DNA from: Takakia lepidozioides
Taxonomy: Eukaryota; Plantae; Bryophyta
Assembly: GCA_030704615.1 (NCBI GenBank)
Contig: CM060734.1
Location: 19,282,001 to 19,346,000, forward strand
Direction: 5' to 3'
Length of the DNA: 64,000 nucleotides
The first letter of the stretch is position 1, and each line of letters opens with the position of its first letter. The translations under genes were made by a program, and so were the position numbers. The notes below the pieces were generated by a model. It did not search any database. It was not told where the DNA came from and saw only the letters and a list, made by a program, of their open reading frames with translations. Shown here piece after piece: positions 1 to 37,398 of this stretch.

Positions 1-180
1 GCTGTGCCTGAGGCCTTTGAGGCTGTGACGAGCTGTGAGGGGCTGTGACAGGCTGTGCCCAGTGGCCTGTGGGACTGTGACGGCTGTGACCAGTGAGCTG
101 TGTGGGCCTGTGCTGGTCTGTGGTGGCCCGTGTTGACCTGTGGACGGCCTGTGCTGACTCGTGGAGGCACTGGTGGACTG
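1..180 (+). repeat. Degenerate ~10-bp (G)CTGTG-cored tandem repeats, probably in the retroelement 5' leader
   Basis: gctgtg/cctgtg/actgtg recurs about every 10 nt. Confidence 0.6.
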
Positions 181-874
181 CCTAAGGACTGGCATGTGGT
201 CTGGAAGGCCGAATTTTGAAGCTCGTGGAGGGCGGTTTGAGGAGTATCTTCATGATATTCCCATGGTCATGCAAGTGAGGGAAGAGAGGAGAGGAAGAGT
301 GTTGGGATGAGGGCCTGGGGTTAGGCATTGCTTTAGCTTCTCTTCCTCGTAGTTTCCCCCCTCTCATTAGGCCAAGACCTTTCCGTAGGTGGAGGCAAGA
401 GTCAGTCCGAGTTTGGGCTGGGGTGTCCTTGCAGGAGCAACACCGTGGAGTTGTTTTTGGTGTGGGGGAGTTGTCGTTCTGATTTCTTGTGTTTGGATCC
501 CCTCCATACCTGCATGCTTGACTGTGCGCCATGCTAGTTTTGTGTGGGCGCTTGTTTTTATAGGTATTGGTCCGGATTTGATCACCGGCCAGTCCTAGAG
601 CATGCTGTCGATGGTGAGGCTGGGGTGATGACCAGCCAGACCATCATTGTTTCTCTTGTGGTGAGGTTGGAGGTGATGACCAGCCAACCATAGGAGTGCT
701 TGCGGTGGATGCAGGTACAGGTGTAGGCTATGTTAGGAACTTAGTATTCCAAACCATAAGCCGCAACAGGTTCTCTACCCGGTTACCTTGTGGAGAGGGG
801 GTTAGGGACATGTTCATGCTGGGGATAGTGCCGGTTCGAGCACTAGCGATACTAGTGGGTACACGAGACGAGGT

Positions 875-2509
875 GTGCGGTTTAGGCCACCTTCACCTCC
901 TGTGTCTTCTACGGAAGGTTCTGATTCGGATTGTGAATCAGGAGGACTCATACCGGCGGTGCAAGTTGTTTCTTTGCCATTGTTGTGGGACACAATGGAG
1001 GAGATGTATGGAGCTACCAAGGGGCCACGAAGGTACTCTGGGGCGGTGGGCACCATCGAGTTGGATGATTTTATCCAAGAGTTTGATAGTTGGTGTGATT
1101 TGCAGCAAATGCGCAATCCACAACTATTTACGCCTTTCATGGCATGGAAGGGGCTGTTTCAGCACCTTGAGGGGCCGCCTATGGATGATTACCATGAGTT
1201 CAGGCGGGGGCATGAGGTTGAGATCGAGGAGTGGAGGATGTACTGGTCACCCGACTATGTCTCCATCACTAGGGGCACTAGAGCCACGAGGGCAGTGGCT
1301 ACACCTGCCGCTGCACCGGCAGCTTCAGCAAGCAGCAGTGGGACTGGTGGTACAGTAGCTACGACGTCCACCCAAGCCACTACCGCACCAGCACTAGCAC
1401 CCGTGCCTGCCTTCAACCCTGTTGTGGAGTTCTTCGAAGAGTTGAGAGGGAACTACCAAGGGGTGAGGACAGAGAAGTTGCGGAGCTTGCAAGAGTTCCA
1501 ACGGAAGCCGACCGAGAGCTTGAGGGAGGCTTTCACTCGCATGAGGCGCTTGATAAATGTAACCCAAGGGGTTACGGAAGCTCAGGCAGTCCAATTCTGG
1601 TATGTGATATTGGACAAGGAGCTGAGGAGAAGGGTGCGGGATGCAACTCTCCTACAAGCGGCCCAACCCACCTTAGCAAGTGGTGCTCCTAGCCAACCAC
1701 CACCTCAACGTGCTCAAGGCAACAAGGGGGCTCAGGTGAAGCTCAGGGAAGGGCAGAGAGGACCTCAGATGCAGGGGTCTCTCCCTTCATTTGCTGGCCA
1801 ACAACGGGCGGATGTGGTGTGCTGGACATGTGGAGGACCCCATGTCAAGAAGGATTGTCCAGAGGGAGGCAAAGGGCCGGCACATGCACAGCCTGCACAG
1901 TTACAGTGTGGGCATTGTGGCAAACACGGGCATGGAGAGGCTCAGTGTTATGGTTTGCATCCTGAGTTGCGCCCAGGCCAGTTCCAAGGGAACAATGGTG
2001 GCCGGGGGCGAGGTGGAGCAGCCCAGAGGGGACGAGGTGGCCAGCCACGAGGTGCAGGCCAAGGGCAAGCTCAACGTGGCCAAGGACGCGGAGGTCAGGG
2101 TGTTGACCAAGGCATGGCCAACCGGCTTCAGCAGCTAGAGCAGAGGCTCGCTGCCATGGCTACAGCTCAGGTGGTACCGGCTCTAAGGCCGGATGGTCCA
2201 CCTCCTGCTCCTGAGGGAGGAGATATGGGAGGCATGGGATTCATGTGTGGAGCAGCACTACCACTAGTGCAGGTGGAGTCTGCTGCAGCCGTGACTCGAG
2301 GAGCAGCACGAGTTCCTGAGCCACGAGGTGCAGAGGTGGAGTTGGATCCACAGCGTGGGGAGGCAAGCCGTCAGGCTAGGCTTCCTCAGTCATTCACATT
2401 GGCGGAGACAGTGTCGACGCCATCCATGGCACCTAGTTCTCGCCCGACTGTTACCGAGGCGGAGGTTACTATGCCATTGGGGAGCTACACGGGTAGCACC
2501 ACTACCTAG
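875..2509 (+). CDS. gag: Gag with two zinc knuckles and a G/Q/R-rich tail (true start uncertain)
   Basis: ORF 875..2509 contains CWTCGGPHVKKDC and CGHCGKHGHGEAQC, plus capsid-like LQEFQRKPTESLREAFTRM. The reading frame continues in another frame after a G-run near 2480. Confidence 0.85.
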   Translation: MRFRPPSPPVSSTEGSDSDCESGGLIPAVQVVSLPLLWDTMEEMYGATKGPRRYSGAVGTIELDDFIQEFDSWCDLQQMRNPQLFTPFMAWKGLFQHLEGPPMDDYHEFRRGHEVEIEEWRMYWSPDYVSITRGTRATRAVATPAAAPAASASSSGTGGTVATTSTQATTAPALAPVPAFNPVVEFFEELRGNYQGVRTEKLRSLQEFQRKPTESLREAFTRMRRLINVTQGVTEAQAVQFWYVILDKELRRRVRDATLLQAAQPTLASGAPSQPPPQRAQGNKGAQVKLREGQRGPQMQGSLPSFAGQQRADVVCWTCGGPHVKKDCPEGGKGPAHAQPAQLQCGHCGKHGHGEAQCYGLHPELRPGQFQGNNGGRGRGGAAQRGRGGQPRGAGQGQAQRGQGRGGQGVDQGMANRLQQLEQRLAAMATAQVVPALRPDGPPPAPEGGDMGGMGFMCGAALPLVQVESAAAVTRGAARVPEPRGAEVELDPQRGEASRQARLPQSFTLAETVSTPSMAPSSRPTVTEAEVTMPLGSYTGSTTT

Positions 2510-2896
2510 TGTTGTCAAGGCTACGGCAGCTAGTGTGCTGCTAGGAGCGGCCACATCTGTGTGCCAGGCTCCATTGTTCTCGGCTACCATGATTGCGACG
2601 CCGGGGGTAAGACCAGCTGAGGTGTTCAGGCTGGCAGCTACACTCTGTGAGAGTGGGGAGGTTACTTCATCTTCTGCGGAGATAGTAGGAGGTGTAGTGC
2701 CGGAGGGATCCTCGGATTTGAGGGTTAAGACTGCCACGGCGGCGCCATGGCAAGCTGCAGCTGCCAGGTTGATGGAGCTGCCAGCTAGGCCAGCCATTGA
2801 GCGCGCCATGGTGACACCTGGAGTTGTCATGTTAGACAACCAGGATGGCATTTTCTGTTTGAGTGGACCGGCAGGCAAGAGGTACCGGCCACTGCG

Positions 2897-3260
2897 ATCT
2901 TGTTGGACTCGGGAGCTCAGCCACTGATGCTGGGCAGAGCTGCTATTGCAGGCTTGGGCCTCACGGAGGCGGATATGGAGCCTTGTCCTTTCCAGATACA
3001 GACGTCTCTGGGAGGATCGGAGCAGGCTCGGGGCATGACACGGCATGAGTTGGCTATCAGACTACGGCCGGATCACCCTACAGATGGCTCAGTGATGCGA
3101 GCCAAGGCCATTGTGACAGACGCAGTCTCATACGATGTCCTGGTTGGTGGGGCAGTGTTGTACCCCATGGGCTTCACCCTGGATTTTTGGGAGGAGTCAG
3201 CTTCCTATAGGCCTGCATGGCAGTCAGGGGAGGGCCGGCGTGTGCAGCTCCCTGTGACGT
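2897..3260 (+). pseudogene. Retropepsin aspartic protease domain of Pol
   Basis: (I)LLDSGAQ catalytic motif near 2900 and YDVLVG (retropepsin ILG-type motif); frameshift just upstream. Confidence 0.8.
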
Positions 3261-3619
3261 TCATAGGAGGAGTTGCGGTTGCCCAGCGAGGCAAGATGCC
3301 GACACTAGCAGCATTCACAGCGGCAGTGAATTGGCCTAGAGAGTTGCTTGAGGGCAATGCTCATTCAGAGGATGTACCACCTCCGGGAGAGCAGGATGAC
3401 ATGTATGGTATGGCGGAGTTGCCTACCATGGTTGCTCAGACTCCATTGTGGGGCACGAGCAAGGATTTGCAGCGGGATGCTGATCGACGGGTGCAACAAG
3501 CCTGGGTGGAGGCTTTTGTACCGTCAGGAGAGGAGGAGAGTGTGGGGATTGCACCAGGACCACCTCAATTGTCTCCATTGGACACCACACCTATTGTGTG
3601 GCAGTCTCCGGATGAAGGC

Positions 3620-4563
3620 ATTTGTCTTCTGGACTTGTTTGGTGGGATCAGCACCGGATTGGCTGCTGTGTTACAGGCAGGTGTACGAGTTCGGTGTTAC
3701 CTGTATGTGGAGAGGGATGAGACTGCACGACGCGTTTCACTTCGCCATGTTGCTCAGTTGGTGCAGCGGTACCCTGAGTTGTTGTCGGTGTCTGCAATTC
3801 GTGGATATCAGCAGGCCTTGCCAGCAGACATTTCGTTGCTGGGGGCGCAGGATTTGGAGCGGGTTTGGCTCCATTGATCTGGTAGTGGCAGGTTGGCCCT
3901 GCCAAGGGCATTCATCAGCCGGGCATGGCAATGGATTGCGAGACTCGAGGTCGGGTCTGTTTTGGGAGATGGTGCAGGGTTTTGCGCCACTTGCAGCTTC
4001 ATCAAGCTGTATCTCCAGCATACATCTTGGAGAATGTGCCACTGATGGGCAATTCTCGGGCCAGGGTGATGGCCAGTGTGCATCAAGTCCGGTCGTGGCT
4101 TGGGTCAGCAGTGTTGCTGGATGCAGCTACAGTGGGGTCACGGGCTCATCGTCCACGGCTATGGTGGACTAACATGATGCCACCCGCACTGCTCAAGCGT
4201 GCATTTGATGGGGTGCAGCGGCCAGCACATCTCACAGTGGATAACATTCTGGACACAGGGAGGCAGTCTCAACGTGTGAGACACGATGACCGTTCGCCTT
4301 TGGCAGTGGTCAACAAGGTGGGTCAACCACGAGCAGCATTACCTACACTGCTCAGCTTCCCAGGATCGCATGCTTTCCGGGATAGTGGACCTGGCCTCCT
4401 GTGGGATGCTCAGTTGCAGCAGTTAGTGGAGCCTAATGCTGACGAGCGTGAGCGGGCAATGGGTTTTACCACTGGTACCACGGCGGTGTCGTCTCTTTCT
4501 GAGGCATCACGTCGTCAAGTGTTGGGGCAAGCAATGGATCTCAATTGCTTGACCTGGATTATC
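3620..4563 (+). pseudogene. DNMT3-like C5 cytosine DNA methyltransferase domain within Pol (two +1 frameshifts)
   Basis: Motif I LLDLFGGISTG, II YVERD, IV DLVVAGWPCQ (PCQ 3897-3905), VI ILENV (ENV 4030-4038), VIII AHRPRLWWTN, IX ERAMGF, X RRQVLGQAM, spread in order over ORFs 2900..3877, 3348..4172 and 3925..4869. Confidence 0.92.
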
Positions 4564-5028
4564 AGCTTGGCTCTAGCTGAGCAACGCAGAGTGCGGAATA
4601 CACTTCCCTCAATGGTCTCTCTGCCTACCGAGACGGTACAGGCAGTGAGTGGGGGCGAGCATATGAGGACCACGGGGTGCATGCATCCATGGCACACGTG
4701 GGAGGTGCTCGAGGTTCAGAGGGAGTTGGCAGCCAAGGCGGCTGTGATGGATGAGGTTGGGGATTCTTCTCGAGTTGAGGAGGTCCTCAAGGATGAGATG
4801 ATGGGGCAGGATGATGCCTTGTCATTGACTGAGCAGGTAGGGAGTACTGCTCAAGAGGTTGCAGCATAGCAACCACGGGACGCGTCCTCTACCTCTAAGC
4901 CCACTGGACTTAAGGTTGTAGTTACGGAGGACAATTGGGAGCCTGACATTGGACCCATTGTCACCGGAGGAGAGAGACGACGTATACGGCGGTTCCTGAG
5001 GGCTTACAGGAATTGCTTTGCCTTCAGT

Positions 5029-5816
5029 TTGAAGGACTTGGGAGCACTGAAGGGTCAAGAGATCCGTATTGAGTTGGCCACTGACACGCCAATCTTTCGG
5101 AGACCCTATAGATACAGTGACATGGAGAGGTCTTTGATTCAGATGAGGACTCAAGATCTCTGGGAGGCAGGTTTGGTGGAGCTCTCTGGTGGAGAGTATG
5201 CTTCAGCCACAGTGATGCCAGCCAAGAAGGATGTCTATGGCAATTGGACGGAGAGACGTATGTGCGGTGATTACCGGCCTGTAAATCGTCAGACCAAGTC
5301 CGATAAGTATGCCATGCCAACACCAGAGGAGATCTTTGATGCCATCGGGCATGCTAAGGCCTTTAGCACTTTGGATTTACGATCCGGATATCACCAGTTG
5401 CCAATCAAGGAGGCGGACAAGCAGAAGACGGCATTCTGGGGGATCAATGAGCACGGCAAGGATTGCCTATATCAGTGGCGGTTCTTACCATTTGGGCTTA
5501 AGAATGCTCCTGCAGAGTTTCAGAGAGTCATGGATAGGATTCTAGCAGGGGTGGACTTTGCTCGGTGCTACATAGATGACATCATCATCTTTAGTGTTAC
5601 GATGGAGGAGCATGAGAGACACCTTCAGGTGGTATTGGAGCGCTTGAGAGCGCACGGATTGAAGTTGCATCCGGGAAGTGCAGTTTTCCACAACCAGATT
5701 GAGTATCTGGGTCACATGATATATCCTGGAGGATTGGGGGTACAGCAGACTAAGGTAGAGGCCATTGCACAAATTCCACGCCCCACGGATGTGAGCCGAG
5801 TTCGAGCTTTCATGGG
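5029..5816 (+). pseudogene. Reverse transcriptase domain
   Basis: RMCGDYRPVN, DLRSGYHQ, KTAF, LPFGLKNAPAEFQ, YIDDII, YLGH; frameshift near 5816 into the RNaseH frame. Confidence 0.97.
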
Positions 5817-7997
5817 TTGGCAAACTATTATAGACGGTTTGTCAAGGGATTTAGTACCATTGCAAAGGCTCTAACCAAGCTGACCAAGGTGGACCAGGAG
5901 TGGCAGTGGGAAGATGAGCAGGAACGAGCTTTTCAAGAGCTCAAGGCGAGGTTGACCTCGGCGCCTATCTTGAGACGACCTATCAGGGGGCGTCCCTTTC
6001 AGCTGCATACGGATTGGAGCATGCTGGGGCTTGGAGCGGTGCTCACACAGGTGGATGATGAGGGAAGAGAGTTCGTAGTGGCTTACGCTAGCCGCTCGAA
6101 CAACGCTGCAGAGGCTAAGTACAGCTCATATGAGGGAGAGTGCTTAGCTGCAGTGTGGGCCGTGGCACACTTCAGGTGCTATCTATACGGCAATCTTTTC
6201 ACCCTTGTCACGGATCACCAGCCACTCAAGTGGTTGATGGAGTCAGACAAGCTTACAGGGAAGCTTGCACGGTGGGCACTTATACTCCAGGAGTATGACT
6301 TTCAGGTTGTGCATCGACCGGGTTTGGTCAATCGGGATGCGGATGGATTGAGTCGCAATCCATGCATGAGCCAGCAGGATGACACTGGAGCTCGGTGGCA
6401 TGGTGAGACGGACGAGGAGATGGTGCCGGGATGGCACGCATCTGCATTTTTGTGTATCTTGGCATCGGGAGGTCAGATTGGACCTACAACAGGGATGACT
6501 GTAGACGGAGTGTCTGAGGACCCTGAGGCTAGTGATGAGCTAGGTGGTGCCAGAGATATACATGAGGATTCGGCTGTGTTGGACTACCTCCGCACGGGAG
6601 ACACGGCAGCCATTGTGACTGCCAGGGAGAGGGATCGGATCCTGCAACGAGCCAAGAGGTTCAAGTGGGAGGGGATACACCTACTTCGAGTGTGGGAGGA
6701 TGGTTGGGTGAGGATTGTGCCTCACCCCACACAGCGTGCACGGTTAGTGCGGCATGCCCATGAGGAGTTGGGGCATTTTGGAGTGCGACGCACTCACAGT
6801 TTACTGCAGGGGCAGTATTGGTGGCGTGGTATGCATACAGAGGTGCAACAGTTTGTGGCTAGGTGCATGGTGTGTGACAGGGTGCGTGCTTCATTCAACG
6901 CCCCTACACCACAGTTGCATCCTTTACCTATCATGGGATTGGGCTACAGGTGGAGTCTTGACTTCGCAGGACCGTTGCCACTGACTATGCGCCACCACAG
7001 ATATGTGTTGGTGATGGTGGAGCACTTCTCCAAGTGGATTGAGTTGGTTCCATTGCCTGACAAGGCTAGTGAGGGGGCTGCGTATGCATTCTTGGATCGT
7101 GTGCTTAGCCGATTTGGTGCTCCAGCTGAGGTACTCACGGACCAAGGGAGAGAGTTCTTGGGGTTTCAGGCTTTGTGTGATAAAGCCTTGATAGACCACC
7201 GCACCACTTCTCGGGATCATCCTGAGGCCGATGGCTTAGCAGAGAGAATTGTTCAGATGGTGAAGAGGGGTTTGCGCAAGTATGGCTTGCAGAAGGGACA
7301 CCTAGGAGATTGGGATCTTCAGGTTCCTTGGTTAGCCATGGGCTACAGGTTCAGCAAACAAGCATCACTTGCCTCCTTCTCACCATATTTCCTTCTCTTT
7401 GGCCGAGAGCCGGATTTGCCTGCAGCCATTCGTAGGGACACTGCTCAAGTCCTTAACCTTGACGATCCGGACGTGTGGGTACGTGCATGTGATCAGCGTG
7501 CAGAGTTGTTCAAGAAAGTCATGCCCATGGCTTTTGAGAACCTTGCCATTGCACAGCACCGTGATACGTTGAGGTATGCCACTATACGTGGTGGAGGATA
7601 TCGTCCTGGGGTTCGGAGGTTTAGCCCTGGTGACTATGTTTATTTGCAGCAGACTGCTCCTACGACTCTGGATGTTACTGCAGGGCGTGTTATTCTGAGG
7701 GTTCGAGAGGTGTTGCCCTCAGGGGTCCTGATCTTAGAGGGTCGGGATGGCATGACTTGGAAAGACCATGTGCGTAATTGTGCGCCATGTCACCTTCCCA
7801 ATGTCGATGGCAGAGTTGACCCAAACTTGGCAGTGGTACCTGCAGGTTTGAGGTGCATGCTCTGTGGGTCTGCCAAAGGGGCAGCCACCATGCTGGTGTG
7901 TGATCGGTGCTCAAGGGGTTGGCATATGGGATGCTTGACACCACCTCTTGAGAAGGTGCCTGACGGAGATTGGTTGTGTCCACACTGCTTGGGATAG
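5817..7997 (+). CDS. RNase H - integrase - C-terminal PHD finger
   Basis: LHTDWS..GLGAVL, YASR, EGECLA, TDHQPL (RNaseH); HEELGH..CMVC zinc motif; D(SLDFAG), D(TDQG), E(GLAER); PHD CMLC..CDRC..WHMGC..WLCPHC at 7854-7997. Confidence 0.95.
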   Translation: MANYYRRFVKGFSTIAKALTKLTKVDQEWQWEDEQERAFQELKARLTSAPILRRPIRGRPFQLHTDWSMLGLGAVLTQVDDEGREFVVAYASRSNNAAEAKYSSYEGECLAAVWAVAHFRCYLYGNLFTLVTDHQPLKWLMESDKLTGKLARWALILQEYDFQVVHRPGLVNRDADGLSRNPCMSQQDDTGARWHGETDEEMVPGWHASAFLCILASGGQIGPTTGMTVDGVSEDPEASDELGGARDIHEDSAVLDYLRTGDTAAIVTARERDRILQRAKRFKWEGIHLLRVWEDGWVRIVPHPTQRARLVRHAHEELGHFGVRRTHSLLQGQYWWRGMHTEVQQFVARCMVCDRVRASFNAPTPQLHPLPIMGLGYRWSLDFAGPLPLTMRHHRYVLVMVEHFSKWIELVPLPDKASEGAAYAFLDRVLSRFGAPAEVLTDQGREFLGFQALCDKALIDHRTTSRDHPEADGLAERIVQMVKRGLRKYGLQKGHLGDWDLQVPWLAMGYRFSKQASLASFSPYFLLFGREPDLPAAIRRDTAQVLNLDDPDVWVRACDQRAELFKKVMPMAFENLAIAQHRDTLRYATIRGGGYRPGVRRFSPGDYVYLQQTAPTTLDVTAGRVILRVREVLPSGVLILEGRDGMTWKDHVRNCAPCHLPNVDGRVDPNLAVVPAGLRCMLCGSAKGAATMLVCDRCSRGWHMGCLTPPLEKVPDGDWLCPHCLG

Positions 7998-8246
7998 TGG
8001 CAGTGGACATGACTGGAGGCAGCTAACAAGACATGGGAGGCCAAGCTCATAGGAGTCAATACATGAGATCCCAAGCTCAAGTTCACAGGTTGCAAGACGG
8101 CGACTAACGATGGGGCAACTCTTGCACCCGGCCTCTTGATCTATCGAGTTTGAGTGTAGTAGGGATAGTGGTGGAGGACTTAGTGAGGCTATGGTCACTA
8201 TCACATCTTGTGGCTACCTGGACTTAGAGGGACCTAAGCACCAGCT

Positions 8247-8257
8247 AGGGGGGCGAT
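8247..8257 (+). promoter_or_regulatory. Polypurine tract
   Basis: AGGGGGGCGAT immediately before TG at 8258. Confidence 0.75.
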
Positions 8258-8963
8258 TGTGTGGACTAGCGACTGCCATAGTGGGCAGCGTAGTGGCAGC
8301 CTAGTGACTGACTAGTTGTAGTCTAGTGGTTGGACTAGTGGTTGGACTAGTGGTAGACTAGTGGTATACTAGTGTGTGGTGTGCACATGTGTTGTGTGGT
8401 TTTGGACAGCGATGTAGTTGTGTAGCGATATGTATGCGCACGACAGCTGTCAAGTTATTTTACCACTAGTGTGAAACTAGCTAGGAAATAGCTAGCTTTT
8501 ACATATTGACATTTGGGATTGGCCCAAGTGTCAATCCAGGGGTCAAGGCAGATTTAGGCCCTGGAGTGGTTATCTTCACGGCAAGCGCGGGAGGCTCATC
8601 TTTCTCGAGTTGAGCCTCACCGCGCCTAGCTATGGCGCCGTAGTGTGGATTCCCCATGGCGTGGGGTGCACTTGGCTTGACTTGTATTTGAGTGATGAGG
8701 TTATATATGCATGAGTTTATGCTTCAGCTTTGTGAGCTCGCATGAGCTGAAGCTTGTATTCTTCTTCTTTATCATTGTGTGGACTAGCGACTGCCATAGT
8801 GGGCAGCGTAGTGGCAGCCTAGTGACTGACTAGTTGTAGCCTAGTGGTTGGACTAGTGGCTGGACTAGTGGTAGACTAGTGGTATACTAGTGTGTGGTGT
8901 GCACATGTGTTGTGTGGTTTTGGACAGCGATGTAGTTGTGTAGCGATATGTATGCGCACGACA
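8258..8963 (+). repeat. 3' LTR region with A-B-A structure (188-bp direct repeats 8258-8445 and 8776-8963)
   Basis: The two 188-bp copies differ at 2 C/T positions by eye; both start TG and end CA; internal 11-12-bp CTAGTGGT repeats; 8448-8963 is bounded by TGTC...GACA. Confidence 0.85.
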
Positions 8964-9476
8964 TCATGGTTTGTGTTGAGGGTTTGGTTTTGTCTGCTGT
9001 TGGTTTTGTGTTTTCTGGTTTTGGGTTTTTGGCGGGTTGCAAATGACGGATTAGGGTTTCAGCAAGCTTTTATAATCCTAATTTTAATTGTCATCCAGTT
9101 TTGCCAAATATTCACCGGCTTTTTTGCCAACCCAAATCCACCGTAGCCTACTCTACTCGTAGGTCACCGTAGACCTTTTCGATGACAGTATTCATAGAGC
9201 CACATTAAACTTCATGAGAAGTACAGAGTGGAGGTACCTGTGAATGTGTGCACCAGAGGCAGAAAAAGGGATGCCATGACCCCAGGAAAAACATTGAGAA
9301 TATCCGACCTCAGTGCTGTAAGAGGAGTTATGATGTTTCATAGTTTATAACGAAATTGGGTAACGAAAGTTAATGACGAATGGGATTGCCGGTGAACGAA
9401 CCTCCACTTATAAAGCGAGGTTCACCCCTTCCTTATAGCACGTTGTTTCCTCCTGTGATTTCCATGTGATGGCAGT

Positions 9477-10277
9477 ATGAAACCACGGAGCGTGGGTGGG
9501 GAACCGGTTGCGGAAGTTGGGGACATTCGTGGACGGGGGCACTTTAAAAGGCGCAGGAGTCGGAGTCCTCTAGGATTCCAGGAATTATGTCACAACTCTG
9601 GCCAGGTAAAAAATCTGTACAATCCGGAGGGCCCAAACAAGACAGCTGTACATGAAAATCTGGATATCACCGGTTGCGGGTCTACCCATATCGCCAGAGT
9701 GACCTTTCCATCAGGGTCCAATGTCTTTAGTCATGATGACAGATCGTGCGGAATCCAACCCTACAAATCGGAAGATGACTTCCCTGGAACAGGGAAATCC
9801 TGTTCAGTAAAAAACCCCAAGTTTTCGTATTCCCCGGGAAATACTCCATATTCACCAGAAAGCAATGGAACCACGAAGGAGACTCCAACGGCAGGATATC
9901 TGGCATCATCTCCTGGATACAGTCCTCCGTCTCCAGACTCCCCTGTACACGCCTCAGGCTCTCCTGGCTATTCGTCTGCGTCGCCAGAATACTACCCTGG
10001 ATCTCCGAGCTCTTCCCCTGTAGAATACACCCGTGCAGACTCTTCCCCTGAGACCAGTAGGACAATTCGAGAGACTCTTCATGAACTATACCCTGCAGAT
10101 AACTATGACACTGACTCTCCTGCCTACTCCACCGGTTCAGTAGAATACGTTCTTGGGTCTCCGAGCTATACCCCTCCAGATTACTCCCCTGAGACTCATC
10201 GGGCGATTACTGAGACCCTCCTTCGTTACAAACATGAAACAATGACCAATATTGAATTTGTGCGGAAGGCATATTAG
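9477..10277 (+). CDS. Ser/Pro/Tyr-rich ORF with RNA Pol II CTD-like heptads
   Basis: 266-aa ATG ORF with in-register heptads such as YSPGNTP-YSPESNG, YLASSPG-YSPPSPD, YSSASPE-YYPGSPS and YDTDSPA-YSTGSVE-YVLGSPS. Confidence 0.55.
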   Translation: MKPRSVGGEPVAEVGDIRGRGHFKRRRSRSPLGFQELCHNSGQVKNLYNPEGPNKTAVHENLDITGCGSTHIARVTFPSGSNVFSHDDRSCGIQPYKSEDDFPGTGKSCSVKNPKFSYSPGNTPYSPESNGTTKETPTAGYLASSPGYSPPSPDSPVHASGSPGYSSASPEYYPGSPSSSPVEYTRADSSPETSRTIRETLHELYPADNYDTDSPAYSTGSVEYVLGSPSYTPPDYSPETHRAITETLLRYKHETMTNIEFVRKAY

Positions 10278-10880
10278 GCTGCGAAATATGATAGCAAAAT
10301 AGGATTATGGATGTTCCTTGTAGGATTTTACGTTTTCCTGTAGGATGATGTATTGATTGGTGAAACAAGCCTCTTTTTATACAAATGTTTTCGAACATTA
10401 CTGTTTGTCATTGTCATTGAGTTTTTTTCAAAGACATTGGAGTTGTTCAGAATGAAAATGTTTCCCAACTTTACTGCTTATCATTGCCATTGACTTTCTT
10501 GGAATTCTGATAGACTTTCTAGTTATTCTGATATCCAGAATAATAACTTCTTCTTTTTCTAAGGTCAAATTCTCCAAACTTCCACTGCACAGTGGAGGTT
10601 ACATAAATCGGTCTGTGGAGTCTGAACATGGATTACACAATTTTCATACCTCTGACACAAATGTTTGTTGTTTTCTGATCAAAGTTCCCACTCCCCAGGA
10701 CTACGTTGTTGGAATGTGCAAAGAGATGTGGACAATTCATATGTCGTCAGTCGCCAAATTTCAAAACACAACACCTCGCCATTTTTAAGCTCTACCCAGA
10801 AGTGACGGAGTGGGGCATCGTCCCCGTGGGTACACCTCCTGAGCACAAACTGACCTTCCAATTTAAAGATTGGTGCTGAA

Positions 10881-13791
10881 GTGAAAGAGCTGAAATACGC
10901 AATCGTTCTCGATATTGAGCTGGAGTTGGATGCTGAAGATCCAATGTTGGTTGTATTCATTATGGAGGACGGGAGACTCCCCAAATCGTTTGGATTTAAA
11001 GTACAGGTACGACGACTCCGAAAGGCCATGATGAGAGAGTCCATAGCAATGGGATTCACGTTTCCCGGTGAGGGCGCTGTCTTTACCGATGAAGGATTGG
11101 CCATGTCCTGGAATATCTTTATGGATATTTTATTCATAAAGGGGTAAGGACAATTTGAAGGAGCAAGCTGCCTCTGGATTGAGGCCAAAGAAGGGAAAAA
11201 GAAAATCCACGACTGGAGCATCTACGGAAGAAAATGAGGCTGGAACTTCCGCGGGGAAAAAGAAACAGAAGGAAGATATTGATCCTGCTTTCATGATAGA
11301 TAATAAGAGACCGAAGGCGGCTGATATTTTTGACAATGACAAGTGCGACAAAATGCAAGACAGCCTCCAGAAATTTTATGGTAACATGTTCCCCTTTGGC
11401 TTCGAACAGATTTTTGAGGTCAAGGTTAACATGATGGAGCTCGCACCCAGGTCAATGGTGTACCAGCCGCTGAACATTAAGCACAAAGCAAAGTGAAAGC
11501 TCGCCTATATCAGCTTCGGGTATTCGACTCCAAACATCATGTTTATTTGGCGCCAAAAAACCCAAACAAGGATAATGAGGTTTCCGCCTCCAAACCGCGG
11601 AATTGGACAGAGATCGACAATGCCAAGTTTTTCGTCATCGGTGGACAACACACCATCGTGGCTGCACAAGTTAGTTTTTGGCCAGCTCCCATCTCTGTAT
11701 GCAAGTGAACCTCCACTGTTCAGTGGAGGTTAAGTTATCCATGACTATGAACTGATGTCTTTCCTATATGATGTTTCAGGAACTTGTCGAAGACCTGGAC
11801 GACGAAGATCTAAAGAAATACTACCGAGAGTGGCTAGCAAAAATTGTTTGGTCTACCGATGGACTTAGGCTTGTGAAAATCTCCAAACTCCTCAACGATC
11901 CCAACAAAACGCATAAATTCGACATCACCTTCCCGAAGAAAGTTGCACACGCGCGATTGTTTTATGGGGAGCAAGGGAGGCCAAAGAAATACAACGACCA
12001 CACCACAAAGTCGGAAACCAAACAATGGAAGGTAAATTTATTTTTGTTCACTTACAATGCAATTCGACTGCTTCCAAGCTTTCAATCTTTTGTCTAATGT
12101 CAGATCAGACATCTAATTTTCGCCGTTGACATACTGGCGGGAATTTATGCAAGCATGTCAACTCATTCTAGAAATGACCAGCATCAAGGAGGCCATGGTT
12201 CTGGACCTCTGTGACGAAGATGTATGGAAGATCTGGGAAGAGGTTTTCAGTCAATGGGAGCAAGGAAAACTTATTGACAATTTTGGAATTCAGTTCTAGG
12301 GTGAGCAGCAGCAACTAACAAAAACCGTTATTGCGAAACTGCAAGGACTTAACAGCCGGCAGTTGAGAAAGGTAGCTCAAAACATCTTGGATTGGGATTT
12401 GAGTATCCGGGGTCCCTACAAGGGTGAAGACAAATCCAAGACCTGCATGAACGATTACATTGACTAGATGAAAATGCGCAGATTTCTTATCGATGATGTT
12501 ATGGAAGTTTTGGGGTGGCCTCGGAGTAGCAAGCAGTGCCCTGAGCCCTACGCAAAGGCTGAGTGGCTGAAGGTCAAAAAAATGTACAATTTCAACAAGA
12601 ACGAGTTTGCGACATTTCGGGACAAGTTGGGGGCAGATTACATTCAGAGCAAGATTAAGATGAATATGGAGACCAAACCTATCACTACTGCTTTCGTTAA
12701 GTACATCTCCTCCATCAAAAAAAGCATTTGAGGAAAGGGAGCATGCCCTTGCAGTCCTCGACTCCAGTTTCAAGTCTCAGTATAAAAGTATGGGGGGGAA
12801 GGAGAAATTCAACAATGCCAAATCTCGCTTGTCAGCGGTCTCAAGGAAACGTTTTGAAACAATAGCGCTGGTGTTTGTGATTACCATATGCGACGATGAC
12901 TCTGTCATGTTCGATGCAAAGGATTACGCAAACATCCTGGAGGCTTTTTCAGGACAAAAGCTCCCATCCAGTGCTTTTGTCTTTCTGTCAACACAGCCCG
13001 CGTCTGCCAATCTTGTGTCGTACATCCGGAATGGTCAAGGATCAAAAACGTATCTGGTGCGGCAGGGATATTATATTCCCGGTGAGTTTGAAAATCCATT
13101 TAAGAACTGCACAAAGATATTCTCTCAGCCAATCCTCTGCCTCGATTACGTGTTTCCGGTCACACTTGAGGAGATGACGAATCCGGATGAGCATATTGGG
13201 ACAGTACTCTTGATTGACCCAATACTACCTATTCTTGAAGGCCCGGACATTGAGTTCTCAGACCTGGAGAAGGACTGCAGGACTTACACCCATGAGCTCC
13301 GCCTGGAAACATACGATTACCTGGTCTCGCTGTTTTGTCGCGACGGGATGTCTTGTGTAAACGTTTTTGGAGGTGTCATGCTAACTTACGTTCTCCATGT
13401 AAGTACCTTCTAACTGTCTTTGTGATTTATTGAACCTCGAACGTTCGACAGTGGAGGATCTCTGACCCCGTCGTTCACTAGTACATCGCTAGCACACAAC
13501 ATTTGGGTATTGGACTTCAACCTGCCCACGAAAACTCAATTCTGCAAAAGCAAGGTGCAAGCCAATTTTAAAATGCTTGCAATAGACAATAATAACCTTG
13601 GCGATGGCGATGAGGAAATACTCGTGAAAGGAAAGGAGATAGCAGACGATGAAGACGATGAAGATGACGGAGACGACCAAGTCGAAGCACTGGAGGGAAC
13701 CCCTCAACACCACCAAGAACTGGTCCAGGATACGGAGCAAGGTGGAGATAACATGACCCAAGACAATGAGGGAGACTGGAATGATGGTTAG
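10881..13791 (+). pseudogene. Decayed spliced gene: ParB/Srx-like domain, degenerate amino-methyltransferase-like domain, acidic tail
   Basis: Collinear + strand ORF pieces; GT-AG intron 11670-11779; FFVIGGQHT..A motif; LETYDYLVSLFCRDGMSCVNVFGG near 13300-13374; several stops and frameshifts. Confidence 0.5.
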
Positions 13792-15269
13792 GGACAATTG
13801 ACGGTGGAGGAGGGCGACGGACAGAACCTTCTGGAGCAGACACATGAGGCTAATGAGTGATCACCTTTCCCCAGTACGTGGAGAGGAGTCAAGCTCTACG
13901 GGTCTGGTCAGATTTGGACTTCATAATGTGGAGGATGGGTTCAAACCTGTTGAAGGAGACGAGCCTCTCCCCATGTCTCCGTCTTCCGCAAACAACCAGA
14001 GGTTGGGAGACATAAGCCAGGCCCCTGATGACTCCCAGCAAGTGACTCTGGATGTACGTACCGTTTGACATAACGAAATGGATTATGTATCCCAAAAATG
14101 TGAATTGAATATTCGCCTTGAGTTCAATTTTTCCTCTGCCTTTGGTCCAATCGGAAATACTGCTCATTTCCAAAAATTTGTAAATCATTCCGTCCACCAC
14201 ATTTTCTCCACTAACGGATTCCCTAGTTTCATGAAGATTCGTGAAGCAAAATCAGAGGATATCACACACACAAGGACTGATTCGATTGAGACTCAAACGA
14301 TGAAGAGGCAAGTGGACCTGACAATCAGGGTCAGCTCATCTGAACTCGTGGGTCAAGTAACGTCATTGCAACTGCGGCAGATTGAGTCGGACGAAATTGT
14401 TTCACGGAGAGAAGGAAAAGAGGAGGAGCACCCCAATAGATGAACCCAGCAACCGCCCCCGAAAATGGTAATGTTTTAACATCTATTTTCTGGTTTCCTA
14501 CTTTGTACTTTGTGTAGATGTTGTTCACAATTAACTTCTATGTTATTCCACATCCTGGTTCTTCACATTGGGTAACATTGTGAGGATTACCGTAAGGATG
14601 GGCTGTAATCCATCTATATCCGCAGGGAAATTCGAGCTAGCTACGCGAATGTGTCTTTACGTCTTCCTGAAATGAGTCGTCAATATTTTTTTGGTTTGTC
14701 TTTCTAACTCGGGAACTGGAATCAATGCCAAGGCCTTGTTCGGCAAATAATATCCCAGGGTCAGAACATGCATCATTTAGATTTTTTTCAAGCATAGAAC
14801 TACCTTCACCGCAAAAATGGCGGAAATTTCCAAAACCCTGTCTACTTTAAACGGCTTTACGACATTTTTGCTGAGGAAGACCCCACTGCTTTCAAAACAA
14901 ATACTCTCCTGGGGAATTGACACTGTAGACAATACTCGATGGACTGAAGCCGCACTTGCTGTATCCGTTCGGATTTAGGAAGGATGCCGTCTAGGATGAC
15001 CCACCGGTCAGATTACTTAGAGGTTGGGAGTATAAGTGGCAAAAGTTCCTTAGTAATACCGAGATACGTGCCGATGTATTGGGACATAAGATATTTTGAA
15101 AGAATGCAATTGTAGTTTGTGTGTAGTGAACCTCGCCTTTGTTGTTCACTTCCTTATGGTCTGGTGGTTCCCTTCCACTGTAGTGTTCCCTATCTATCAT
15201 CCTATGTCTATGAATGACTCTATGGTAGAATGGATCTCCAGTTTCCCCGCCTGCGCAAGGGTTGCGTTT

Positions 15270-15962
15270 GTTAATTTTTTGACGTGAATAGAGTTTTGTG
15301 CAAAATCTTGAAGCACCAGAAGACCTACAATGTCCCCTGGCTGTCGGAAACAGACTACAGAATACCAGCTATTGTTGGGATTCGTCTGGTCTATAGACGG
15401 GAGAAATATCGCGAAATGTGGGCAGTTGCACAAACATTTCTGGTTAGGGATTTGGAGCTGTATGATGCAGAAGAACTTGCAACCTATGCTGGACTTTTTG
15501 TTTCATGGTCTCCCACAGCCCGCATTCGTTATGTCTCAAGAAGATTGTATTTCTTGTCCTACTTTTGTGCACCCTGAATTTATACCAGGATATGACTCTC
15601 CCAGTTTGTTTTTGAAGCCGTTTCTTAAGGTTTGGGAGAGATTTGGTGGTCAGTACAACATGAGTAACACTCTGCTCATTGATGACACGGCTACAAAGTG
15701 TGTATTAAATCCGCCCGACTCTTGCCTACTTCTGAAACCGTTCGAGACGGTGGAGACTGATTGTTGCTATCTTCAGAAGGTTCTCTTGGACTATTTGCTT
15801 GGGATGAGGAAACATCCCACTGTTTCAAGCTATCTCAGGAAAAAGAGGATAGGGTGTAAGCCTTACACCAATGTTTCAAATGATCCTAAGTTTAGGCCAC
15901 TCTTGGATTACATTGGCGATCATAATGGTTTGAGGAATTTCAGATATGATGTATCAAAATAA
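15270..15962 (+). pseudogene. FCP1/SCP-like (NIF family, HAD fold) phosphatase domain, frameshifted
   Basis: LIFDVNRVLC (motif I-like), GIWS and NTLLIDDTATKCVLNP across ORFs 15284..15577 and 15330..15962. Confidence 0.65.
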
Positions 15963-19660: not shown

Positions 19661-20574
19661 TCGGGGAGCATCCAAGAGGGGAGTGGGAGTGAGAGCAGTG
19701 AGGAGCGAAAAGGGAAGGGGGAGCAGGTTCGAACTGCGGACGTCGGGAGAAAGACCTCTCGTCAAAGAGCAGAAAACCGCGCGGTGTAAGTTGCGGTTGT
19801 TGGCCAACGGCAGTGACCGCGCAGTTTCAACCGCGCAGTTGTTGAGTGCAAGGTGTAGCTGCTTGTGCGGGTACGGTTTCTTTGGTGCTCAGACTGCTGC
19901 AGCCTGCCCCCTCAGCTTCCGGCGTTACAATTCAGGCGTCACTGCTACTGTGCTGTCGGGATTGAGCGGCTATATATTTAGATTGTCGGATGGTGCTCGT
20001 TTGTCGTTGAGATCTCGCTTGGACTAGCATTCTTTATGTTTCCTCGTTTGGAATAGCATCGGATTGCAGACATGTCTTTGGAGAGGGGAAGAAACAGACT
20101 GGGAGTGAATCTTGTCTTCTTTCGCTGCGGTAATTGAAGAGCCTGTGGAAAACCCTGTGTGCACATGGTCGTACTCTCGTTGTTGTCTGTGACGAGGAGA
20201 AGCGTTTCATTTCGGTGTATGTGCATGCCATGGATACTTGTAGTGTCAAGTGTGATGTGAGTGTTGTCGAACGTGAGCTGAGCAATGTCGAGCTTTATTG
20301 CACAGAGGTTGGCAAAATCAACTCGGACATAGATGCAGATAGCAGTAAAGTAGGGTGATTTCGAAGAAATTGTTATACTGAGAGCTTTTAGCCGCATATA
20401 GACCTGGTTTTACGTTTTCCCATTGTGAGAGTTTGGAAAATCCTTTGAAATGAACAATGCGTCGCTTGTTGTTCTCTGGGACCATTCTTGAGTTTTAGTG
20501 TTTAAACTGTGAAGTCGAAAGAGAGAGACAGACAGGGCACGGAGTTGTTTTTAGCACGGTTTTGCGTGTGAAAA

Positions 20575-23488
20575 ATGGCCCAATCGAAGAGGGCAGGCCA
20601 CAGAAGTCGGCACAGGGGATCCTGGACAGAGGAAAGCATGAAGGAAGCAATAAAAGAAGTGAAGAAAGGGGCAGCATCCATAGCTAAAATTGGTGAGAAG
20701 TATGGGATTCCCGAGACTTCAATTCGAGACTGGATGAGCGGGAAAACATCCTCCAAAAAGCGAGGTCCTCGTACCGTCCTGTCAAAGGAGGAAGAAGATT
20801 CCCTAGTTGATTGGTGCTTAGAAATGCAGAGGTCGGGCAATGCGATAACATTCTACATGCTGAGAAGGAAGGTAGCCGACGTCTGTCATGGGAGAGAAAC
20901 ACCCTTTAAGAATGGCGTGCCTGGCAAGAGCTGGATGGATTGGTTCAGGAAGCGCCATCCTAATGTGATGATTGAACCTGCACATGCGCTCAAGGGGAAG
21001 AAGAGGCCCGACACTGAGCGAGATATATTAGGTAATGGACTCGTAATATGTCTCCTGATCGCACTCTAAAATGTACAAGCTATCCCCTTTCTTTAGGGAG
21101 GCAGGACTGGACGTTCTGGCGTTTTAATGGGAATGCATACTCACCTTGTCTGAGTAGGTCACAGCGAGATGGTTTGGATTTCTAATTCTCCTTCTACGGC
21201 AAAGGTAAAGCCCAATTTTGACTACCAAAATTGGGCGTCAGGACGTCAGTAATGTCCATGCAGATTTCAAATTGATTAAGGAGTAAAGACTTCCCTGTAC
21301 AATCTTCCATGGACTCACCATGTACAAGGAGCATGTTATAGATAGAAGAACACGGAAATGGGAGATAGCCAGGTCCATTCTGATTATGCTGGTAGGGCAA
21401 AGAGTCTTCAGTGGTTTTTGGCTCTTAGGTTCAAGTTAGTCAACCTCTTACTCATTTGAATGACAAACATGCTAAAACCCCTTAACCTGGACTCTATGTG
21501 TGAGACCATTAGTACCAGCTACTCTCCTGTCTGTAGATAGGTGGGGTATGCAATGGAGGATACTACAGCCCCTACCCGCCATCCCCTGTAAACGAATGCA
21601 TGACTAGAAGGATGAAGAAGGCAGGTCTGTCTAGTACAGCTTATGTCTGTAGTGGTCTTTGCTTTCCAGCTGTCTGAAAAAAGGTGGGCCTGCTGTTCAT
21701 GTATGTCTCCAGGTCTCCATTGAAGTCATGGGGACAAATGAAAGTAAATACAATATGATATCTGGACATAATGACAGCCTATATAAATGCCTCCAGTTTG
21801 CCCTGGCGGCACCCACAACCGTTCTTAGAGAAAGAGGACAGCTGCCCTATTTGTAAGCACAGCAGATGCCAAATGCATGATCATCTGTTCTTAGGCCACT
21901 CTTTGGAAGTATCAGAGAACTCTGCATATAGCTGAGCAAGTGATGCGATTTGATTTTAGGTGGGAAGAGAGCAAAGACAAGTCCAATTAGAGCACCTGGA
22001 CCAGCAGAGGGCATGATTGAAAGGGGAGAGGAGGCTTCTATGGGGAGAGACTTGTTTGGTGTTGCAGTTAGCGAGCCACCGGATGTGGAGCCTTGTGATC
22101 CGCGTGATATAGTGTCACAGGTGTGTACCAGTACTATTGCAACTTGGGCTTGTGAAACCAACCTCGTGAGAGAAGTGAAATGGGGTCCATGGAATATACT
22201 CTGCGTGTCCAGATTATCACATTCTCATAGTCTGCCTGCAAACAGTATCCGGATAGACATGCTTGGAGCAGTGGTGCTTTCAAGGAAAGAGAACCATGAC
22301 AATCAATATTTGCCATGGCCTTGTCGCTTTGTAATCCCTACCTAGTTTCAAAAGTAGGAATATGCGGGAGGGAAGATGCTACCAATATGCAGGCTGCATT
22401 CTCACACTTCATCTGGATATGTGAAAAGCTAATGCTACAGGAAACCTGTATTGAGGCCCGCATCACGACAACCAGGCGAAGGGAGGGCGTTGGGATGGAG
22501 GAAGGCACACCATTAGCCCCTGGCTATGATCCATGGCAAGGTATTTTCTCCACTTAACACGTTCTTTGATCAGCTCCATACTTTAGATAGAAGTGCCTCA
22601 GCTCAGTTTGGGCCGGTTTAACTCTCGTGTTGTGGTAAGGGAGTGGCGCATTTTGAAGACTTGCTTCATCTGTACTTAATTTTATTTGAACCAAAGTGTA
22701 ACAGCTTTTGTAGAGTTGGTAATCTGCTGGTCAGAGACCATGAGGGATCCCACTTAAGTATTTGTCATATGACTAAAGCTTGACTACAGTGCTTCACAAT
22801 TGTTCTCTAGAGGTGAGTGATGTTTCTCAGGTATTGCTGTTTCTGTCATTCTTGATGTGAAGTAGAGCTCCAATTTATCTTGAATATGTTGAAGTCCGTC
22901 TTAAGTTGCATGTCTTCATTTCATCAGTGTGGATGTTTTTCTTGAAAGGTTCATGTCTGTTTAATGTCCACAGGCCACGAGCACACTGATGGTGGCGGAG
23001 GCATTTCTAAAAGTGACGATAGTGAAAGCTACCCCTCCAGCACTTCAAGTGGGGGCAAAAGGTATACTTCATCATCTCTCTCTCTTCTTGGTCCTGTAAC
23101 TTAAAACAATTATACTGGTTAGGGTGTACTGAAATTCCATGAATCTACTGAGTGAAACCAAATTTCCTTGGCACTGTTTGATATGAACAGGAGAAAGCAA
23201 TGGGTTGAGCTGGCAGAAGGTCTGGCGGGAATTGAGAGGGCAATCAGGGAAAGTGATGACCGCAAGGACCGACGCCTGGATCGGCAGCTGCAGGCGACTG
23301 ACCGCATGGCAGCAGGCTTTATTGGGGCCCTCATGAATGTTGCAGAGTCTATCCGCAGCTTAGGTCCGCGAGGTTTAGTCCCGCCAGGTCTAGGGGCAGG
23401 TCTAGGGGGTCTTGGGGGTTTAGGAGGGAGTTTAGGAGGCGGACTAGGAGGTGGTTTAGGAGGTGGTTTAGGGGGTCACCCTTCCTAG
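20575..23488 (+). CDS. psq-HTH + CENP-B-type HTH DNA-binding protein (pogo/Tigger-derived), exons 20575-21031, 22974-23061, 23191-23488
   Basis: WTEESMKEAI..YGIPETSIRD..LSKEEEDSLVDW..PFKNGVPGKSWMDWFRKRHP; phase-compatible GT-AG junctions lead to a helical, Gly/Leu-rich C-terminus; no DDE domain. Confidence 0.75.
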
Positions 23489-36600: not shown

Positions 36601-37398
36601 GCTCCGCGATGATAGAATCTTGAGACCAAATTACCTTTCAGCACCCTTATCTCCTTCCCTCTTGAGGGCATTGGGGCGGTTCAGGGTGGGTTCCCACAAC
36701 CTACGGATAGAGACTGGCAGATGGGAAAACCTGCAACGGGAGGACCGCCTATGTCCAGCTTGCATAGGGCGCAGCAAGGAAATTGAAACTGAAGAACACT
36801 TCTTCTTCTACTGCCCTCTATACTGCGAGATCCGTGGGAGATTTCACTGTTTATTCAGTGGAACCCAAACTCTCACTGATGTCTTTCACTACGAGGATCA
36901 AAAATGCGTGGCAGCCTACCTACACGAGGCCTTCACCCTTAGACAATCGCTAGAACATTAATTGTGGTTTCTGGATTTGTTCCTCTCATGTTTTCTTCCA
37001 TTTTGTCCCATAAGCTCTACGAGCTTTCCGCAGACGTTATAAAGCACCATTTCATTTCATTTCATTTCTCTCTCCCCCTCTCCCTCTTTCTTTTGTCCCA
37101 TAAGCTCTTGGAGCTTCCGGTAGACACTACAAGTTTTGTTCATTCTTCATTTTTTCTTTGTCTAGTCTGCAATGATGGTGGGCCTCATTTTATGCCCCCC
37201 TATCCGGCTCAAATTACATTTCACTGTGACTTCTAATGACTTCCTTTCACGGGGGCAAGGACAGGGAACAGAAACCCTAGATCAATGCTTTCTTTCTCAA
37301 TATCTATGGCTGATACCTACCAATTACTTGCTATTTCGCAGGAACTATGTCTACCACTGAGGAAAAGGCCGGGAACATTCTATAATCATTTGGAGTAA
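27617..37398 (+). CDS. FAAH: Fatty acid amide hydrolase (amidase signature family), multi-exon
   Basis: Exons encode [61 protein letters not shown] and [19 protein letters not shown]; ATG 27617, stop 37398. Confidence 0.92.
28975..29270 (-). mobile_element. SINE-like repeat, copy 2, with a ~130-bp internal extra segment (FAAH intron)
   Basis: GAAGGGCTACTACCTTC..GGAAGGTGG and TTTGAACCCATGACCACT match the other copies. Confidence 0.5.
31065..31569 (-). mobile_element. LINE family A 3' fragments, rearranged (FAAH intron)
   Basis: [17 protein letters not shown] zinc knuckle; closely similar to 45868-46660; 15-bp TSD at 31480-31494 and 31570-31584. Confidence 0.85.
31868..32166 (-). mobile_element. 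Two tandem 5'-truncated LINE family A copies
   Basis: Both begin ATGTACTCATA on the + strand; CAGGGAAGGAGAGA occurs at 31854, 32110 and 32167. Confidence 0.85.
35052..35175 (+). mobile_element. SINE-like repeat, copy 3
   Basis: GGGTTCAAAACC box B-like motif followed by AAAGGTGTCCACC..GGAAGGCAGTAGCCCTT. Confidence 0.5.
35860..37070 (+). mobile_element. LINE family B, 5'-truncated: RT C-terminus and zinc knuckle, 3' stem-loop, (ATTTC)n tail (last FAAH intron)
   Basis: ORF 35732..36961 with [21 protein letters not shown] and [12 protein letters not shown]; tail CATTTCATTTCATTTC. Confidence 0.9.

Follow-up and report, generated by a model that had tools for sequence, protein, structure and literature searches.

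The first 8963 nucleotides of the 64,000-nucleotide stretch of the moss Takakia lepidozioides analyzed here (GCA_030704615.1, contig CM060734.1, positions 19,282,001 to 19,346,000 of the forward strand; hereafter, the window) are a decayed Ty3/Gypsy-type retrotransposon, in which gag, protease, a C5 cytosine methyltransferase, reverse transcriptase (RT), RNase H, integrase, and a PHD finger follow one another in this order. From sequence comparison, we propose with a confidence of roughly 60% that it represents an abundant moss element whose first open reading frame (ORF1) encodes Gag, protease, and methyltransferase and ends at a conserved, likely leaky stop codon, with the methyltransferase made at capsid levels and likely methylating the element's own new DNA.

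The C5-methyltransferase motifs lie in unpermuted order (I at 3632–3658, IV at 3873–3908, VI at 4024–4041, VIII at 4144–4173, IX at 4444–4467, and X at 4519–4545). Motif I is in frame 2, shared with the protease motif at 2900–2923, motif IV, with its Pro-Cys, is in frame 3, and motif X is in frame 1, shared with RT. This bears out the first-pass annotation, which had described all motifs in order (found at 3632–4545), with the N-terminal part in the protease frame and the C-terminal part in that of RT. The Pfam check it had proposed was passed by the middle piece, which alone clears the DNA_methylase (PF00145) cut-off (E 2.4e-8, 34.2 bits versus 22); the N-terminal and C-terminal pieces taken singly gave no Pfam match and weak DNMT3A matches in PDB (E 0.015 and 0.46). 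With the frame breaks written as X, the window domain and unbroken proteins of Calypogeia and Marchantia share 74–75% identity over 318 amino acids. When 24 relatives were combined into a profile, DNMT3A, 3C, and 3B ranked at the top (E 1e-22 to 8e-17), followed by DRM (3e-12), bacterial enzymes (HaeIII, 3e-8), and DNMT2 (8e-5). The fold evidence comes from locus L032, an uninterrupted relative 53% identical to the window in the C-terminal half, and not from the window copy itself. Its modelled domain (pLDDT 91.6) matched DNMT3A/B best (Z 28.5, rmsd 2.7, 270 residues); ranks 1–33 were all DNMT3, followed by a bacterial CpG methyltransferase (Z 25.4) and HhaI (24.4). Structures of DNMT1, MET1, and CMT were absent among the listed sequence and fold matches, which does not exclude them. 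On these similarities and the model, "DNMT3-like" is a fair label. The loop after the catalytic cysteine is unlike that of DNMT3A in the profile alignment; thus, the sequence specificity of DNMT3A is not transferable.

The domain is shared by the family. Contigs of four runs (three samples) cover 1–8963 at least three orders deeper than the flank, and in the sister copies of the same runs, the methyltransferase bins are as deep as the RT bins. Summed contig depth, which is not copy number, was 0.72–1.31 million over all element bins versus 91–201 in the flank in run X2, and 420–1868 versus 0–1.3 in run X5. Among 80 metagenome loci, the protease precedes the methyltransferase in 61, RT follows it in 64, both hold in 49, and the full run to the PHD finger is present in 19. 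The loci form six DNA families besides that of the window, the largest with 49 loci, and include 10 near-duplicate pairs. A search with the C-terminal half yielded 62 longer proteins, the named ones coming from Marchantia polymorpha (17), Sphagnum (3), Calypogeia fissa (2), and Monoraphidium (1). Fern, lycophyte, hornwort, and seed-plant names were absent from these and from the best 120 of 142 matches of a further search, most of which are unnamed, with annotations that mask transposons. A profile that includes some RNase H columns boosts the scores of RT–RNase H–methyltransferase proteins, and its 649 clusters at E 1e-30 are not a family count. One protein, P0351, shares 94% identity with the L032 domain; its label assigns it to a bacterial metagenome-assembled genome, and it is likely plant or algal DNA in that bin.

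The ratio of nonsynonymous to synonymous substitution rates (dN/dS) was estimated by a simple codon count on 19 pairs, with many between-family pairs saturated at synonymous sites. Unsaturated between-lineage methyltransferase pairs gave 0.05–0.18, with the exception of L056/L069 (0.21 and 0.56). The two methyltransferase halves gave 0.11 and 0.13 for L032/L033 (RT, 0.05) and 0.11 and 0.08 for L056/L066, while the window compared with single loci gave 0.07–0.18 for close families (0.12–0.18 against four of the loci) and was saturated otherwise. A between-family ratio of about 0.1 supports, at the level of codon comparison, purifying selection on the methyltransferase domain. Close copies within the largest family reached 0.40–1.03 in the methyltransferase halves and 0.49–0.57 in RT, which we read as decay after insertion. 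The central claim of the first-pass annotation, a Gypsy-type element with an intronless DNMT3-like C5-methyltransferase between protease and RT, was supported by Pfam, profile, fold, and the 49 of 80 loci. Of the signs it had named as counting against this claim, none appeared: the domain is not confined to one copy (methyltransferase depth equals RT depth), purifying selection is present, and a failure of reads across the protease-methyltransferase-RT junctions did not occur, although no one listed host contig spans the protease-methyltransferase joint.

The same annotation had regarded the TAG at 4867–4869 as a single interruption of a continuous Pol. The codon was confirmed, in the RT frame, but its conservation speaks for a different reading. 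A TAG or TAA with CAR directly after it stood at the matching place of the RT frame in 38 of the 47 close sequences that include RT, the window being one of these sequences (11 further close sequences, from contigs without RT, stand outside the 47); after stray stops within domains, CAR occurred in 13 of 510. The signal is present in five of seven DNA families (that of the window, the largest, L050/L051, L032/L033, and L044, which is without RT), and CAR is retained across families only about 50% identical in protein. The uninterrupted L032 consists of two ORFs split by one TAG alone, ORF1 of 1369 codons (Gag-protease-methyltransferase) and ORF2 of 1047 codons (RT, RNase H, integrase, and PHD). 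Eighteen of 30 proteins with protease and methyltransferase terminate 60–145 residues past the domain. No Met precedes RT in ORF2, the first being residue 85 in the window and 117 in L032. In sister copies, 4867–4875 is not among the best 40 of 89 variable sites; 4864 and 4877 are. UAG-CAR-YYA is the read-through consensus of tobacco mosaic virus (TMV) (PMC3159437), and the window, L032, L033, L050, and L051 fit it in full. As judged from this comparison, TAG 4867 is a conserved design feature and not a lesion, and the methyltransferase ends a predicted Gag-protease-methyltransferase ORF rather than sitting inside Pol. The stop is likely leaky, being read through at a low rate.

The features of the window copy are as follows.

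1..994 (+), 5' non-coding region, with high depth from position 1 and no copy of the 3' repeats within 1–1000.
995..2896 (+), gag, 50% identical to Marchantia P0005; Retrotrans_gag E 0.0026, under the cut-off.
2897..3250 (+), aspartic protease, DSG motif at 2900–2923.
3620..4575 (+), DNMT3-like C5 cytosine methyltransferase domain, by motifs, Pfam, profile, and relatives; reading frame broken near 3864 and 3976.
4576..4866 (+), C-terminal tail of ORF1, 3' of the methyltransferase; open frame, related proteins ending 60–145 amino acids past the domain.
4867..4875 (+), predicted read-through stop between ORF1 and ORF2, TAG then CAR-YYA; 38 of 47 close sequences, motif of PMC3159437.
4870..5813 (+), reverse transcriptase, RVT_1 E 1e-28; YIDD at 5569–5583, reading frame broken near 5682 and 5813.
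5814..6359 (+), RNase H of RT, RT_RNaseH E 7.8e-36.
6693..7541 (+), integrase, zinc-binding and core domains, Integrase_H2C2 E 1.4e-16 and rve E 2.2e-13.
7845..7997 (+), PHD finger at the end of ORF2, PHD E 1.1e-10.
8244..8255 (+), G-rich polypurine tract immediately 5' of repeat B1; a purine-rich tract precedes B1 in 10 of 10 sequences printed.
8256..8445 (+), repeat B1, 190 nt, CA at its end, 99% identical to 8774–8963.
8439..8452 (+), palindromic CA-nn-TG where B1 meets A, a predicted attachment site for integrase; present in 14 of the 24 sequences with sufficient 3' DNA, one match doubtful.
8448..8773 (+), repeat A2, TG at its start, assigned by position; the same segment in relatives repeats the 5' end at 84–94% identity.
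8774..8963 (+), repeat B2, the right end of the element, CA at 8962–8963; depth drops by at least three orders beyond it, and a flank contig starts at 8964.

The scans of the window and of its relatives gave the Gypsy domain order gag, protease, RT, RNase H, integrase, with a DDE integrase. No tyrosine recombinase of the DIRS/Ngaro type was matched in the window pieces or the L032 ORFs, which hold an rve integrase instead. Two zinc-knuckle-like motifs were found in gag by motif scan (1820–1843 and 1907–1933). The protease piece of the window had no match in the Pfam scan; its relatives P0006, P0035, and L032 match Asp_protease_2 below the cut-off. In gag, a deletion lies near 1680 and the frame shifts near 2480 and 2896. 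Over the whole copy, with one more near 7162, the indels lie near 2480, 2896, 3864, 3976, 5682, 5813, and 7162. The window copy can no longer encode its proteins. At 3864 and 3976, most sample depth differs from the window (97% at both in X5; 62% and 100% in X6; two independent samples), and these two breaks are therefore private to this copy, a minority, or assembly errors. Because B1 and B2 are 99% identical, the insertion is young.

Two equal terminal long terminal repeats (LTRs) were not found; the layout is split. Five full-length loci read A-coding-B-A-B, with A pairs 84–92% and B pairs 93–94% identical; A starts with TG, and the last B ends with CA. The window shows the B-A-B part of this layout. 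Its 5' repeat A lies upstream of the window; in L041, repeat A begins about 1500 nt before gag. A 4-bp target duplication flanks four of the five full-length loci (L041, L056, L057, and L069, not L062). Standard reverse transcription of such an RNA would yield an LTR of the form B-nn-A. An integrated A-coding-B-A-B would arise if a two-LTR circle were opened at an internal site of one LTR, and from this arrangement of repeats, a circular intermediate opened at the LTR-internal CA-nn-TG site appears somewhat more probable than its absence.

The mechanism that we propose would run as follows. Most ribosomes would halt at TAG-CAR and a few would read on, since ORF2 has no Met ahead of RT; the particles would thus contain much Gag-protease-methyltransferase and little read-through Pol. 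The protease would then release the methyltransferase within the particle. Copying of the RNA from A1 to A2, with priming of the plus strand at the purine tract that precedes B1, would give linear DNA with the true LTR B-nn-A, and the ends of this DNA would join into a two-LTR circle. Integrase would open this circle at the LTR-internal CA-nn-TG, giving A-coding-B-A-B and the 4-bp duplication. The enzyme would methylate the extrachromosomal DNA, and the new copy would arrive pre-marked like host DNA. We regard methylation by the element of its own new cDNA as likely. There is a precedent in the Symbiodinium retrotransposon DNMT3 domains, which methylated CG in yeast (PMC5890265). The combined picture, in which an old green-plant Gypsy lineage with a capsid-level methyltransferase set by read-through methylates its circular intermediate in the particle and integrates via LTR-internal opening, is put forward tentatively, and we would sooner expect one of its parts to fail.

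Several observations weigh against this proposal. Strict CAR-YYA occurs in only 5 of the 38 sequences, 30 of which have CAA-CCC and an in-frame ATG, and 8 of the 38 have TAA; these cases come mostly from the family with 49 loci. In nine close loci, the signal is missing through deletion, insertions, frameshift, or mutation, one of them having been missed by offset. A stem 3' of the stop scored z −0.8 to −2.9, with a two-sided change in only 2 of 22 pairs. The circle is read from the layout, and the alternative opening of the circle was not seen. The sole Gypsy DNMT tested in yeast, that of Klebsormidium, gave no methylation, a result its authors called inconclusive (PMC5890265). The element is not CpG-poorer than its flank (observed/expected 0.51 versus 0.44), and CpG depletion proved uninformative as a footprint of self-methylation, with other loci at 0.27–0.64. 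Last, a distant family of 22 loci is without a stop between methyltransferase and RT (0 of 18 distant loci with RT). Because of this family, a capsid-level methyltransferase supply is not a lineage-wide requirement, and the lineage would have two modes of enzyme dosing, with the window's clade at the Gag level. In the distant family, gag appears to end at a shared TGA, with protease-methyltransferase-RT in an overlapping frame (four loci: L056:8415-13279, L061, L069, and L075), an arrangement that suggests frameshifting in place of read-through.

The same anatomy would also serve an enzyme that acts on chromatin, either at the insertion site via the PHD-bearing integrase or in trans on older copies, and that limits the activity of its own element. 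In the window, as in most relatives, a PHD finger does close the integrase, and self-limitation is among the options named in PMC5890265. Against this, the methyltransferase of the window's clade is on ORF1 and would be fused to integrase only in rare predicted read-through products, and Pfam scans of the relatives detected no targeting domain on the methyltransferase protein. We consider action on chromatin unlikely, although it deserves to be kept in mind. Another way to read the stop is as a plain terminator, with ORF2 reached by re-initiation or splicing. The in-frame ATG two codons past the stop in the largest family, which departs from YYA at the sixth position, would suit re-initiation; however, the window, L050, and L032 are without that ATG, and their first Met lies inside RT. 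Retention of CAR between families as divergent as those described above argues against both routes, and a single stop in an intact frame is not intron-like, which leaves this explanation with a small probability.

A further explanation concerns the enzyme itself, whose domain might be kept for a non-catalytic or non-DNA role, such as nucleic-acid binding in the particle or RNA methylation. Motif IV is Glu-Cys instead of Pro-Cys in 76 of 193 related domains classified, most commonly in the algal type, and in 12 of 51 domains with the methyltransferase ahead of RT; the lack of methylation by the Klebsormidium enzyme in yeast (PMC5890265) points the same way. However, related domains show little or no variation in the motif IV cysteine, in ENV, and in the arginine of motif VIII, the window's clade retains Pro-Cys, and DNMT2 scores far below DNMT3 (E 8e-5 versus 1e-22). 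We therefore give such a role little credence. A one-off chimera, formed within a single Gypsy copy by a retrocopied host DNMT3 or by a join in the assembly, would agree with a copy broken at several places but is ruled out by the flat family-wide depth, the 49 same-order loci, the selection, and named relatives in three bryophyte genera. The reading that we favor is still the conserved, likely leaky stop with a methyltransferase made at capsid levels and directed at the element's own DNA.

The origin of the domain was addressed with FastTree trees, midpoint-rooted and built on element domains only, with host enzymes and partial domains left out. In the tree of 193 domains, a weakly supported group (0.53) unites the domains that lie between RNase H and integrase, its named members being Scenedesmus, Monoraphidium, and Cymbomonas, and the domains before RT (Closterium and bryophytes) stand apart. 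The window domain clusters with Calypogeia, Marchantia, and Sphagnum elements (support 0.92–0.95), and the RT tree recovers a bryophyte group that agrees with this (0.99). The Klebsormidium models are in a clade by themselves (support 1.00) and are 36–39% identical to the window domain. These trees, which cannot set direction, suggest an old green-plant lineage rather than a recent capture within mosses. Nor do we favor an origin from the DNMT3 of a land-plant host, given related domains in Klebsormidium, Closterium, and chlorophyte elements. Horizontal transfer among bryophytes is left open by the 74% identity of moss and liverwort domains. No close donor was found among viruses (at best 35% in IMG/VR, over 185 of 328 residues) or phages (at best 23–26%), and a search in Atlas gave generic methylase clusters only. 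In ten proteins (P0050, P0057, P0086, P0087, P0106, P0114, P0119, P0137, P0177, and P0203), the methyltransferase lies between RNase H and integrase. Their C-terminal parts have what we take to be the S-adenosylmethionine-binding motif of amino-methyltransferases, with P0050 giving no such Pfam match. By sequence, these ten may be double-methylase elements like the EpiLTRs compared below but with a PHD finger.

Beyond the element, the window agrees with a land-plant host, as the first-pass annotation had it: its genes include one of the DYW-type PPR class and one of the B3 class, and amidase and glucan-water dikinase exons are present as well. The best matches of B3 (55–69% identity) are clusters that include Sphagnum, then Physcomitrium and Ceratodon, with ferns and seed plants lower. 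These matches point to a moss as the probable host and, at such identity, to one other than Sphagnum. The PPR gene (40461–42902, +) is intronless and has internal 408-nt repeats. An ORF rich in Ser, Pro, and Tyr (9459–10277, +; no Pfam match) presumably resembles the tail repeats of RNA polymerase II, and 5 kb beyond it, with ORFs between, lies an ORF for a NIF-type phosphatase (15312–15962, +; E 1e-4). The ORFs of 9459–15962 are possibly one mobile element into which the retrotransposon inserted. A fragment of a Pogo/Tc5-type transposase DNA-binding region is at 20572–21069 (+). Dispersed repeats with open frames (31013–32108, 45868–46683, 47908–48123, and 35636–36961) presumably represent 3' ends of LINE-type elements; the open frame at 35636–36958 had no Pfam match.

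Why retrotransposons should carry an enzyme of the kind by which their hosts silence them has been a question since 2018, and the scarcity of genetic tools for the algae that harbor the known carriers has kept it unanswered. With at least 17 gene models of Marchantia polymorpha belonging to the family, mostly under the name of hypothetical proteins, it can now be put to the test in a model plant for which methylation mutants exist. A Marchantia methylome paper puts the number of DNA methyltransferases at five, these gene models not among them (PMC5784723). A 2019 paper described methylase-coding transposons as absent from land plants such as tracheophytes and built a hypothesis on their loss (PMC6338049); in contrast, bryophytes evidently retain them. 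The predicted read-through stop would fix the likely enzyme dose, and the repeat layout would tie methyltransferase carriage to circular intermediates, as in DIRS elements. If true, the element would be a transposon of land plants that lays down an epigenetic mark of its own, and Marchantia would allow this to be tested.

This kind of element is already known from one alga (PMC5890265). Its occurrence in land plants, the predicted read-through design, and integration by opening of a circle were not found in the open literature searched, which excludes subscription papers. PMC12344493 and bioRxiv 10.64898/2026.05.21.726589 speak of "streptophytes," citing or echoing the 2018 work, and no bryophyte is named in the passages found, although their supplementary trees may include bryophyte sequences; the latter calls the streptophyte Gypsy-DNMT3 a distinct acquisition. 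KnitGypsy-Dnmt3 of Klebsormidium nitens shares with our element the Gypsy domain set, an intronless Dnmt3-related domain, purifying selection, and DIRS-like split repeats (PMC5890265), and the Klebsormidium model P0394 has the methyltransferase ahead of RT as well. In contrast to it, our element has a land-plant host and far higher abundance, its domain is 36–39% identical and falls in a separate clade, and a conserved stop divides methyltransferase from RT, whereas the KnitGypsy-Dnmt3 domain was placed in the Pol ORF (PMC5890265). SymbioDIRS-Dnmt3 of dinoflagellates also combines a Dnmt3-type domain, capable of de novo CG methylation in yeast, with A-coding-B-A-B repeats, but it has a tyrosine recombinase (PMC5890265), while we found a DDE integrase and a 4-bp target duplication. 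The EpiLTR/DAM-LTR elements of Cymbomonas and Euglena are LTR elements with DNA methyltransferases and a chromatin reader as well; their DNMT, however, is described as sister to DNMT4 and is accompanied by DAM and a chromodomain (bioRxiv 10.64898/2026.05.21.726589). Host DNMT3 is the nearest solved sequence and fold (animal DNMT3A/B structures), with unpermuted motifs, but differs from the element domain (26% identity), which is without the PWWP, ADD, or plant N-terminal domain (DNMT3A/B; moss PpDNMT3b, PMC6453930). Finally, TMV (UAG-CAR-YYA) and murine leukemia virus gag-pol likewise place one in-frame stop followed by CAR between the structural ORF and the polymerase (PMC3159437, PMC3441728); in the moss element, where read-through is predicted from sequence, the stop follows protease and methyltransferase and not gag.

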